NCBI GenBank assembly: GCA_019057865.1
Contig: JAHLWP010000002.1
Location: 33,293-97,292 of the forward strand
Length of the DNA stretch: 64,000 bases
Reading direction: 5' to 3'
DNA from: Promethearchaeota archaeon
Lineage (GTDB): Archaea; Asgardarchaeota; Lokiarchaeia; Sigyniarchaeales; SOKP01
In this document: piece after piece, positions 31,908 through 33,077 of the stretch
Layout of the letters: each line of letters begins with the position of its first letter
How positions within the stretch are numbered: the first letter of the stretch is position 1
Notes under the pieces: model-generated
What the model was told of the DNA's origin: nothing
The model's database searches: none
What the model saw: the letters and a program-made list of their open reading frames with translations, nothing else
Made by a program: the position numbers and the translations under genes

Positions 31908-33077
31908 GTGGTGAAAACTAAAGCTGTCGCTATATCATTAATTATATTTTCAATCATAGGCATAATCCATGGTGCTATTTTAGATTCATTTAATGTATTT
32001 GTAACTTGGTTATTAATTAGTTTATGGATAATATTTAATATTAAGATTTTAGAAAATGTAAAACGTCATCGCGAATTTAATTCACCACACAATACTGCCT
32101 TTTTTGTTATTATCCCTTTATTTATCGGAATTTTTTACTCTATTTGGGGTTATTTTACAGGTATATTGGGTGAAAACCTTCTAGAGGGTTCAGATCTATA
32201 TTTTAGTTGGTGGAGTATCATTTTTGGATTTCCATTTGTAGTATATGGCGCTCATTCTTTATATCGTTGTTTTAAGAAATATAATGTTATTTATTTTGGA
32301 ACGAAATCAATAAAAGCTAGGTTATTTGGATATATTTTAACTTTCATTGTTGTTCTTTTTATATTATTTTATTGGATTATATTTTATACTGTTATTGAAT
32401 TCTATAATTCTCCATTAATCCCGCTTCACTTCTCTGTAGATCTTAACCTTTTACTATTATTCATAATTACAATATTGGTATTAATTGTTTTTGGATTTAT
32501 GAGTTCACAAAGACCATTGCCTGCATTAACTCGTGATTATATAGTACAACGTACTAGGAGAATAAATTCATTAACATCTCCTACCGCATTATCTTCGCCT
32601 AGTAGACAAAGAAATAGGGTAAGTTCACCAACAAGAACAACTCCAACATCAAGAACTGTATCTCGTACAACGCGATCAAGTGCTCAATCATCAAGAACAA
32701 AACCAACTTCACATAGACAATCAACTAGAACAAGATCAACAAAAAGCACTCAAACTAGAAATATAAAACCAACTTCAAAAGGTCGAAATCTGGATAGATT
32801 TAAACCAATAGCATCATTTCTATCAGAAGATGATTTTAAATGTATTTTCTGTTTTAAATTACCAAAACTTCCTGAGGATAGAGGGAGAGGGATAATCTTG
32901 TGCCCACGTTGTAGATATCCAGCACATGCAGATGAATTTAAAGATTGGTTACGAACCTCAAATCTGTGTTCACGATGTAGTACTCCTATTCCATATCGTT
33001 ATCAACGAACTCCTAGAATAATTAGTGTAAAGAATTACTTAATTATCTATAGACACTTTTTAAGGAAGAAGAAATAA
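31908..33077 (+). CDS. Polytopic membrane protein with Ser/Thr/Arg-rich linker and C-terminal RING-like zinc finger (E3 ligase candidate)
   Basis: About 6 TM helices, then a low-complexity segment TSPTALSSPSRQRNRVSSPTRTTPTSRT...STRTRSTKSTQTR. The finger is CIFC-x16-CPRC-x4-H-x13-CSRC with a RING-like DWL signature. Confidence 0.55.
   Translation: MVKTKAVAISLIIFSIIGIIHGAILDSFNVFVTWLLISLWIIFNIKILENVKRHREFNSPHNTAFFVIIPLFIGIFYSIWGYFTGILGENLLEGSDLYFSWWSIIFGFPFVVYGAHSLYRCFKKYNVIYFGTKSIKARLFGYILTFIVVLFILFYWIIFYTVIEFYNSPLIPLHFSVDLNLLLLFIITILVLIVFGFMSSQRPLPALTRDYIVQRTRRINSLTSPTALSSPSRQRNRVSSPTRTTPTSRTVSRTTRSSAQSSRTKPTSHRQSTRTRSTKSTQTRNIKPTSKGRNLDRFKPIASFLSEDDFKCIFCFKLPKLPEDRGRGIILCPRCRYPAHADEFKDWLRTSNLCSRCSTPIPYRYQRTPRIISVKNYLIIYRHFLRKKK

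Follow-up and report, generated by a model that had tools for sequence, protein, structure and literature searches.

The final gene of a ubiquitin operon in a 64,000-nucleotide stretch of Promethearchaeota archaeon DNA (contig JAHLWP010000002.1; the whole stretch is referred to as the window, and all positions are those of the window) encodes a polytopic membrane protein that ends in a finger of RING type, as judged by profile comparison and predicted fold. We consider this protein, termed here the transmembrane (TM)-RING protein, to be probably the operon's dedicated membrane-tethered RING-type ubiquitin ligase (E3), a view based on sequence and structure prediction. The original prediction for this gene, made from the nucleotide letters of the window, was a candidate membrane-embedded E3, and it remains the best reading, which we infer from the RING identity of the finger, the kept architecture and the operon linkage.

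The TM-RING protein is 389 amino acids (aa) long and is encoded from a GTG start codon, with a GGTGA Shine-Dalgarno-like motif ~10 nucleotides (nt) 5' of it, and its N-terminus, MVKTK, is common to homologues. The gene is the last of five co-oriented, closely packed genes in a window of ~29% G+C, and a gap of 29 nt separates it from the gene for a JAB-type protease. Translation and gene order agreed with the original prediction on the open reading frame (ORF), its position at the operon end and the C-terminal location of the finger. The features of the operon and of the TM-RING protein are as follows.

31908-33077, plus strand: whole TM-RING gene, encoding a polytopic membrane protein with a C-terminal RING-type finger
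28781-29113, plus strand: ubiquitin-like modifier (Ub), operon gene 1, C-terminus ...IPASTAG
29194-30429, plus strand: E1-like activating enzyme (ThiF; Pfam E=2.4e-58)
30534-31061, plus strand: E2 (UQ_con; Pfam E=5.5e-25)
31042-31878, plus strand: JAB/MPN deubiquitinase-type metalloprotease (Pfam E=7.3e-15)
31908-32519, plus strand: TM domain, aa 1-204, six helices and a beta-hairpin (hydropathy; AlphaFold predicted local distance difference test, pLDDT, 80-95)
32061-32105, plus strand: loop KRHREFNSPHNTAFF, aa 52-66, with high conservation among Loki-type proteins, presumably cytoplasmic
32256-32321, plus strand: conserved loop with beta-hairpin, SLYRCFKKYNVIYFGTKSIKAR, aa 117-138, presumably cytoplasmic
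32520-32804, plus strand: disordered basic linker, aa 205-299, with its core, aa 225-292, at nt 32580-32783
32805-33074, plus strand: C-terminal finger domain, aa 300-389, beta-beta-alpha RING core with extra helices at aa 363-367 and 374-385/386 (AlphaFold, Foldseek, profile)
32841-32978, plus strand: RING core, C312...C357

Profile and fold comparisons of the finger

The finger has the pattern C312-x2-C315-x16-C332-x2-C335-x4-H340-x13-C354-x2-C357. Its Cys residues are the sole Cys residues in the C-terminal 268 residues of the protein, and it was the only RING-like pattern found in the six reading frames of the window. When compared alone with the PDB, the window finger gave marginal matches to the RING-H2 domain of rice EL5 and the C-terminal finger of IFT144 at E ~0.2. 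A family profile of 27 fingers (alignment A3) matched the RING-H2 domain of human RNF24 at E=1.5e-6 and EL5 at E=5.3e-3, and further matches were RNF4, RNF38, ARK2C/RNF165 and Arkadia, with synoviolin/Hrd1 at E=0.26; the second-best match in the PDB was the C-terminal finger of IFT144/WDR19 (E=2.7e-4). Among Pfam families, Prok-RING_1 (PF14446) matched 17 of the 27 fingers at E <=0.05 (best 1.6e-5, below its gathering threshold of 29.1 bits), zf-RING_2 matched 12 and zf-RING_16 matched 11; the window protein itself gave no match to Prok-RING_1. Weak matches to Zn_ribbon_15 and DZR were seen in some members and to zf_UBZ in 14 of the 27 (best E=0.01), and RINGv was absent from the Pfam matches of the family fingers.

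Searched exhaustively, a set of 1.84 billion representative proteins yielded only 120 clusters at E<=1e-3, of which P0175 and P0228 (tandem-repeat ORFs) and P0221 (apparently an unrelated large protein that lacks the finger architecture) were set aside as spurious. Among the distant matches were soluble Asgard proteins whose alignments to zf-RING_2 cover the same residues. Two of the four soluble relatives scanned exceeded the zf-RING_2 gathering score, most of these relatives carry a precomputed PF13639 assignment, and several are named "RING finger domain-containing protein" by NCBI. Alignment of the TM-RING fingers with the soluble Asgard family by hhalign gave a probability of 98.5% (E=1.5e-15), and the two share the ligand spacing x16/x2/x4/x2/x10/x2.

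AlphaFold modelled the finger on its own with a pLDDT of 87.2, with strands at residues 34-36 and 43-45 and a helix at 46-55 (finger residue numbering), which corresponds to a beta-beta-alpha fold. The 50 best Foldseek neighbours of this model in the PDB were all RING, U-box or RING-like domains, with probabilities of 0.44-1.00 (>=0.66 in 49 of the 50). They included RNF165 (TM-score 0.78, root-mean-square deviation 2.2 A), RNF4, RING1B/Bmi1, Rad18, the HRD1 RING 6f98, CHIP, IFT-A and GATOR2, and the RINGs of AMFR and Hrd1 were among the weak profile and fold neighbours. A simple zinc ribbon, the structure that the original prediction had set against a cross-brace, was rejected: the central helix of RING domains is present in the model, and the 50 best neighbours include no plain ribbon. 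By profile and predicted fold, the finger is a RING-type cross-brace domain, not a zinc ribbon.

The motif CPxC-[KR]-[YF]-P-A...C-x-x-C (window 32904-32978) is shared with the IFT144/WDR19 C-terminal finger (PDB 8bda_I / 8bbg_A), which was also the top Foldseek match, and the IFT121/122 and GATOR2 finger families match weakly. This motif may reflect either shared descent with protocoatomer-type RING-like fingers or convergence.

Zinc-ligand and E2-contact positions

The spacing of the finger was identical in 120 of the 120 close homologues listed. We aligned 60 orthologues, with sequences as low as 18% identical overall, and found that the seven Cys/His ligands, E343, W347, P338, S351, R356 and Y377 were invariant; 11 of the 16 fully invariant positions of this alignment fell in the finger. 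In HMMER alignments to rice EL5 and human RNF24, ligands 3, 5, 6, 7 and 8 correspond to C335, H340, E343, C354 and C357, respectively, and the conserved RING Trp corresponds to W347. These alignments independently reproduced the earlier match of the segment AHADEFKDWL to RING-H2 with Glu at ligand 6, and confirmed the count of seven classical ligands plus Glu at the sixth position. The residue that aligns with His4 of RING-H2 is Y337, a position occupied by Tyr, Phe or His across the family, and C332, three residues before ligand 3, most likely replaces the canonical His4. Zinc site 2 would be formed by four Cys residues (C332, C335, C354 and C357), and zinc site 1 by two Cys residues, one His and a carboxylate (C312, C315, H340 and E343).

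The original prediction had called the finger degenerate. The soluble relatives contain an invariant His at the ligand 6 position, with Asp in one relative, and P0229, a soluble protein of 755 aa with four fingers of the same subtype followed by leucine-rich repeats, mixes H-x2-E fingers with one H-x2-H finger. Because Glu343 is invariant in the 60 orthologues, is replaced by His or Asp in relatives and alternates with His among the fingers of P0229, these comparisons indicate that it is a real ligand position and that the finger is a conserved, maintained variant rather than a decayed one. Carboxylate zinc ligands in such fingers have precedent in the Asp ligands of LIM and Rbx1.

The positions through which RING domains contact E2 are kept. 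The residue at C1+2 is hydrophobic (F314; Phe, Ile or Val across the family), and the Trp at L6+4 (W347) is invariant. Their equivalents in the Caldiarchaeum subterraneum small RING finger protein (srfp), I30 and W58, are needed for activity (PMC5654768).

Distribution and operon linkage

A first homologue search returned 382 proteins, of which the best 120 were 360-404 aa long and all contained the finger. The close homologues belong to Promethearchaeota, the current NCBI name of Lokiarchaeota, in the Asgard kingdom. Full-length identity falls to 18-24% in a distant branch from Heimdallarchaeota, such as HeimC2_08380 of LC_2 and proteins of Kariarchaeaceae, and Borrarchaeum also carries an orthologue. 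A scan of one genome per species with a narrow search pattern found a relative in 103 genomes. The original prediction had proposed a search for orthologues that keep the TM domain together with the finger, and homologues lacking the finger would have counted against it; the combined architecture was retained in every orthologue seen. The family members are all named "hypothetical protein" in databases except for one evident mis-annotation, and the orthologue P0242 bears the JGI name "RNA polymerase subunit RPC12/RpoP".

The Ub, E1, E2 and JAB proteins of the window were run against 87 loci, 83 of which have upstream sequence. In all 83, a JAB gene lies directly upstream of the TM-RING gene on the same strand. 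Ub, E1, E2 and JAB precede the TM-RING gene in this order, also in the loci from Heimdall and Borrarchaeum, where the flanks bear no relation to those in the window. The Heimdall loci contain two tandem Ub genes before E1, and in one Heimdall locus Ub and E1 lie ~2 kb downstream, with E2, JAB and TM-RING still together. Because the linkage persists in Heimdall loci with unrelated flanks, it is strong evidence of functional coupling, beyond the synteny of close relatives.

The E2 of the operon contains, by reading, an HPN...C active-site region and a WSPS loop-7 motif. Its identity is 84-94% across Loki-type loci with a TM-RING identity of >=55% and 73-77% in the most divergent Loki-type loci. 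The longest JAB ORF shares its first 20 nt (31042-31061) with the end of the E2 gene. Since the JAB orthologues are 270-272 aa long and begin just past the E2 stop codon, the real JAB start is probably the internal ATG at 31069.

Fifteen of the loci (L008, L013, L028-L034, L043, L045, L047, L056, L078 and L080) are labelled Hod-, Hermod-, Thor- or Odinarchaeota, and their orthologues are 57-85% identical, with flanks as in Promethearchaeota. The phylum labels of these metagenome-assembled genomes look unreliable and were not used as evidence of wider distribution.

The transmembrane domain

Hydropathy analysis detected one weaker and five strong hydrophobic segments, and AlphaFold predicted six helices (aa 4-25, 28-57, 63-80, 101-123, 137-165 and 179-197) and a beta-hairpin at aa 127-136, bearing out the earlier estimate of about six TM helices. 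The full-length model, built from 60 input sequences, had a mean pLDDT of 73.6 and mostly 80-95 in the TM region. Basic residues are located in the N-terminus, in the loops at aa 48-62 and 119-138 and in the linker, and this charge distribution suggests that both termini face inward, in which case the finger would be in the same compartment, the cytoplasm, as E1 and E2.

Within the Loki-type family the TM domain is very strongly conserved, notably in the loops KRHREFNSPHNTAFF and SLYRCFKKYNVIYFGTKS, both of which are probably cytoplasmic, and many aromatic and polar residues are invariant. The loop at aa 117-138 is a candidate docking surface. Out to the Heimdall orthologues, F66 and P70 were the only invariant TM-domain residues in the 60-sequence alignment. 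The TM domain matched no family in Pfam searches with 60 members or in NCBIfam, and Foldseek comparison of the full model with the PDB matched the finger only, with TM-region matches at TM-scores <=0.2 and probabilities <=0.06. Low-probability matches of this region were to ZnT/YiiP transporters and G-protein-coupled receptors (TM-scores 0.1-0.2), and Foldseek, Pfam and NCBIfam detected no likeness to Hrd1, Doa10 or Derlin.

The disordered linker

The linker (aa 205-299) consists of 39% Ser plus Thr, 19% Arg, 7% Pro and 5% Lys and has a net charge of +21. AlphaFold assigned pLDDT values <50 to aa 225-292, a core that matches the low-complexity linker at nt ~32560-32790 reported in the original prediction. 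In all 60 aligned orthologues the linker is 70-128 residues long, Ser/Thr-rich and richer in Arg than in Lys, with a net charge of +13 to +26, and the Borrarchaeum linker is a poly-Thr version. The linkers of orthologues do not align, so that composition is kept and sequence is not. We read the linker as a maintained flexible tether.

The linker had also been described as RS-like. RS and SR dipeptides numbered 6, compared with 6.9 +/- 2.2 in shuffled sequences, which is the level expected from composition, and this description was rejected in favour of a basic, Ser/Thr-rich, Lys-poor and disordered linker. The motif [ST]R[ST] was mildly enriched (7 vs 2.7 in shuffles, with 0.9% of shuffles reaching 7). 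The basic residues of the linker comprise 5 Lys and 18 Arg, and the ratio K/(K+R), 0.69 in the long ORFs of the window, falls to 0.50 in the remainder of the protein and to 0.22 in the linker. Avoidance of Lys beside a ligase domain would limit self-ubiquitylation, and the composition fits selection against it.

A membrane-tethered E3 and the alternatives

If the TM-RING protein is the E3 of the operon, its six TM helices would fix it in the cytoplasmic membrane, with the N- and C-terminus both on the cytoplasmic side, and the disordered, basic, Ser/Thr-rich and Lys-poor tether of 70-130 residues would carry a cross-brace finger derived from RING-H2. The finger would bind the E2~Ub of the operon through the usual hydrophobic contacts, F314 and W347, acting as an E2-docking and activating subunit, and would promote the transfer of Ub onto proteins located in or at the membrane. 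Substrates may be selected or held by the TM domain, and the JAB protease encoded upstream may reverse or edit the modification. Strict linkage downstream of E2 is expected of a cognate E3, and hence argues for this role; no other E3 candidate was found in the operon or the window by the six-frame search for RING-like patterns.

Several observations weigh against an E3. The window protein alone matched zf-RING_16 best, at E=0.13 for the full protein and 0.037 for the finger, and reached no Pfam RING threshold. The Foldseek E-values were weak (best 7.7e-3, none <=0.001), which is usual for domains as short as this one, of 50 residues. The strongest non-E3 neighbours, the fingers of IFT144/WDR19 and GATOR2, are mostly structural RING-like domains. 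The finger contains seven Cys/His ligands, not the eight of C3H2C3 or C3HC4 domains, all eight of which are present in the soluble relatives of the same spacing, and Glu is unusual as a structural zinc ligand. The Pro after ligand 7 is replaced by Ser in Loki-type proteins. No linchpin Arg or Lys follows ligand 8, since Ser, Asn or Ala follows C357 in all members, and an invariant Arg, R356, lies one residue before ligand 8; a linchpin Arg or Lys is present in many active RINGs, but not in all.

Some of these features would suit a non-catalytic RING-like scaffold, whose finger would anchor or organise Ub, E1, E2 and JAB, or bind ubiquitin, at the membrane without stimulating E2. The IFT144/WDR19 finger, with which the family shares CPxCK[FY]PA, was the second-best PDB profile match, the IFT-A and GATOR2 fingers were among the top Foldseek matches, and the absence of the linchpin, the Glu at ligand 6 and the weak zf_UBZ matches point in the same direction. 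However, the best and most numerous profile matches are active RING-H2 E3s, both canonical E2-contact positions are kept, and the gene is strictly linked downstream of E2 with no rival E3 candidate in the operon or the window. We judge a scaffold of this kind, although it is the main rival reading, to be rather unlikely.

Alternatively, the main function might lie in the TM domain, which could for instance make the protein a membrane sensor, receptor or transporter; the finger might then be a handle through which the ubiquitin system controls the protein as a target. The very strong conservation of the TM domain within the Loki-type family and its lack of a known family are consistent with such a role, but this conservation is nearly gone between Loki and Heimdall proteins, whereas the finger holds most of the invariant positions and is the constrained, operon-linked part of the protein. 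The ZnT/YiiP and receptor matches are also too low in TM-score to lend it weight, and we regard a primary TM function as improbable.

It is very improbable that the finger is a zinc ribbon or another nucleic-acid-binding finger that binds RNA or DNA together with the Arg/Ser/Thr-rich tail: the three CxxC knuckles, the weak Zn_ribbon_15 and DZR matches, the very basic linker and the RPC12/RpoP name of P0242 are outweighed by the lack of plain ribbons among the structural neighbours, by RING families that outnumber and outscore ribbon families, by a central helix with H-x2-E-F-x2-W, which is a RING feature, and by the occurrence of the finger in a membrane-tethered protein of a ubiquitin operon.

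Neighbouring genes

Two further genes lie on the opposite strand, between the Ub gene of the operon and a second ubiquitin-like gene.

26950-27744, minus strand: TM protein with a ubiquitin-like (UBL) domain, the TM-UBL protein
27842-28504, minus strand: double winged-helix regulator, adjoining the TM-UBL gene

Most Loki-type loci have this pair in divergent orientation to the operon, and the loci from Heimdall and Borrarchaeum lack it. In its layout, the TM-UBL protein recalls the UBL membrane proteins HERP and Usa1, and it may, speculatively, be a partner of the TM-RING protein.

The window contains two paralogous ubiquitin-like genes, at 26538-26903 and 28781-29113, both on the plus strand. 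Both encode an acidic low-complexity N-terminal extension of ~40 residues, and both proteins end in ...LLIPASTAG, that is, in Ala-Gly and not Gly-Gly, without a pro-peptide. A gene on the minus strand at 25321-26337 encodes a protein of 338 aa that is extremely rich in Lys, Glu and Arg, coiled-coil-like and without a Pfam entry, and it is conserved upstream of the cluster in locus L001. Downstream, positions 33109-38266 contain metabolic genes that are syntenic in relatives: a GCHY-1 family gene (minus strand), an amidohydrolase, RibD_C and two CofG/CofH-type radical-SAM genes. These genes are unrelated to the ubiquitin cluster.

Comparison with known RING proteins

The Caldiarchaeum subterraneum cascade was reconstituted with srfp (PMC5654768), and a Helarchaeial RING E3 modifies UEV-Vps23 (bioRxiv 10.1101/2023.07.25.550441). 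Like these proteins, the TM-RING protein has a RING-H2-type finger that is encoded together with Ub, E1, E2 and JAB/Rpn11, has a hydrophobic residue and Trp at the E2-contact positions and is the presumed cognate E3 of a minimal cascade. Each of the two known proteins is a small soluble RING with eight Cys/His ligands and an essential linchpin Arg (R69, in srfp; PMC5654768). In contrast, the TM-RING protein has six TM helices, a ~90-residue tether, a shifted Cys ligand 4, Glu at ligand 6 and no linchpin.

Hrd1/synoviolin and gp78/AMFR likewise contain a multi-pass TM block followed by a RING-H2-type finger beside disordered sequence, with a presumably cytosolic location in the TM-RING protein. 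Their TM domains are without detectable sequence or fold similarity to that of the TM-RING protein, and the likeness to eukaryotic polytopic RING ligases is one of layout only and may be convergent. In the part of the window surveyed, 22.9-38.3 kb, nothing pointed to retrotranslocation, degradation or partners such as Hrd3, Der1 and Cdc48, although no search aimed at such genes was made. A comparison with MARCH and Doa10 ligases, drawn in the original prediction, fits the membrane-embedded location and the ligand order Cys4-His-x-Cys2. It did not hold for the domain itself, as the RING-CH of MARCH and Doa10 (C4HC3) is N-terminal with other spacing, whereas the TM-RING finger is C-terminal, gives no RINGv match and is closest to RING-H2, which its Trp helix matches. 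The proposal of a module like that of endoplasmic-reticulum-associated degradation (ERAD) was also not supported: the TM domain shows no detectable similarity to Hrd1, Doa10 or Derlin, and the TM-UBL neighbour occurs in Loki-type loci only. An analogy to ERAD, with the TM-UBL protein in a role like that of HERP/Usa1, is speculation.

The best individual RING sequence matches of the finger were human RNF24 and rice EL5/ATL. These differ in being canonical C3H2C3 domains of eukaryotic proteins with one TM helix, and the match implies no orthology. Both RNF24 and EL5 are RING-H2 E3s anchored in the membrane, and in both a basic region precedes the finger. The TM-RING finger has its closest relatives in the soluble Asgard P0227 family, which has the same spacing and a CPxC pair in place of C-x-H. 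Proteins of this family differ from the TM-RING protein in being soluble and ~195 aa long, in carrying a zinc ribbon at the N-terminus and in having His as ligand 6 and, behind the last Cys, Arg. The genomic context of the P0227-family genes was checked, and none lies in a ubiquitin operon, so that they provide no functional bridge. The fingers of IFT144/WDR19 and GATOR2/SEA share the motif CPxCK[FY]PA...CPxC and a fold neighbourhood with the TM-RING finger; they form the ends of large beta-propeller/solenoid proteins, and the IFT144 finger has neither the His nor the Glu position.

Small RING finger proteins were the only ones identified in archaea as of a 2017 paper (PMC5654768). In a 2022 survey of Asgard ubiquitin-ESCRT genes, E3s were sought solely through the Ufm1-ligase InterPro entry, and in a 2026 review of membrane-associated proteolysis archaea are represented by the primitive cascade only. 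We found no description of a polytopic or membrane RING protein in Asgard archaea in the searchable literature, although an earlier mention is possible, for instance as a gene drawn as "srfp" in a cluster diagram. Operonic small soluble RING E3s in archaea are already known, and a membrane-embedded operonic RING protein does not appear to be described.

Implications

Archaeal ubiquitin cascades have so far been reconstituted only with small soluble RING proteins. The TM-RING system offers testable reagents, namely a soluble finger of ~90 residues, the cognate E2, E1 and Ub, and defined point mutants. Of wider interest are a naturally conserved variant of RING zinc site 1, with a putative Cys2-His-Glu ligation, and a Lys-poor tether as a possible adaptation against self-modification.

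The occurrence of a membrane-embedded RING protein with strict operon linkage in Loki-, Borr- and Heimdall-type Asgards points to the membrane as the site of action of the ancestral-type ubiquitin system. A stronger proposal, which we hold only tentatively and think unlikely as it stands, is that the core ubiquitin cascade of those Asgard lineages that carry this operon is hard-wired to the membrane, with a polytopic RING ligase as its sole operonic E3, a TM domain that picks membrane substrates and, in Lokiarchaeia, the TM-UBL protein as a HERP/Usa1-like partner. If this were true, the ubiquitylation of membrane proteins, which is the logic of ERAD and endosomal sorting, would predate eukaryotes and endomembranes.

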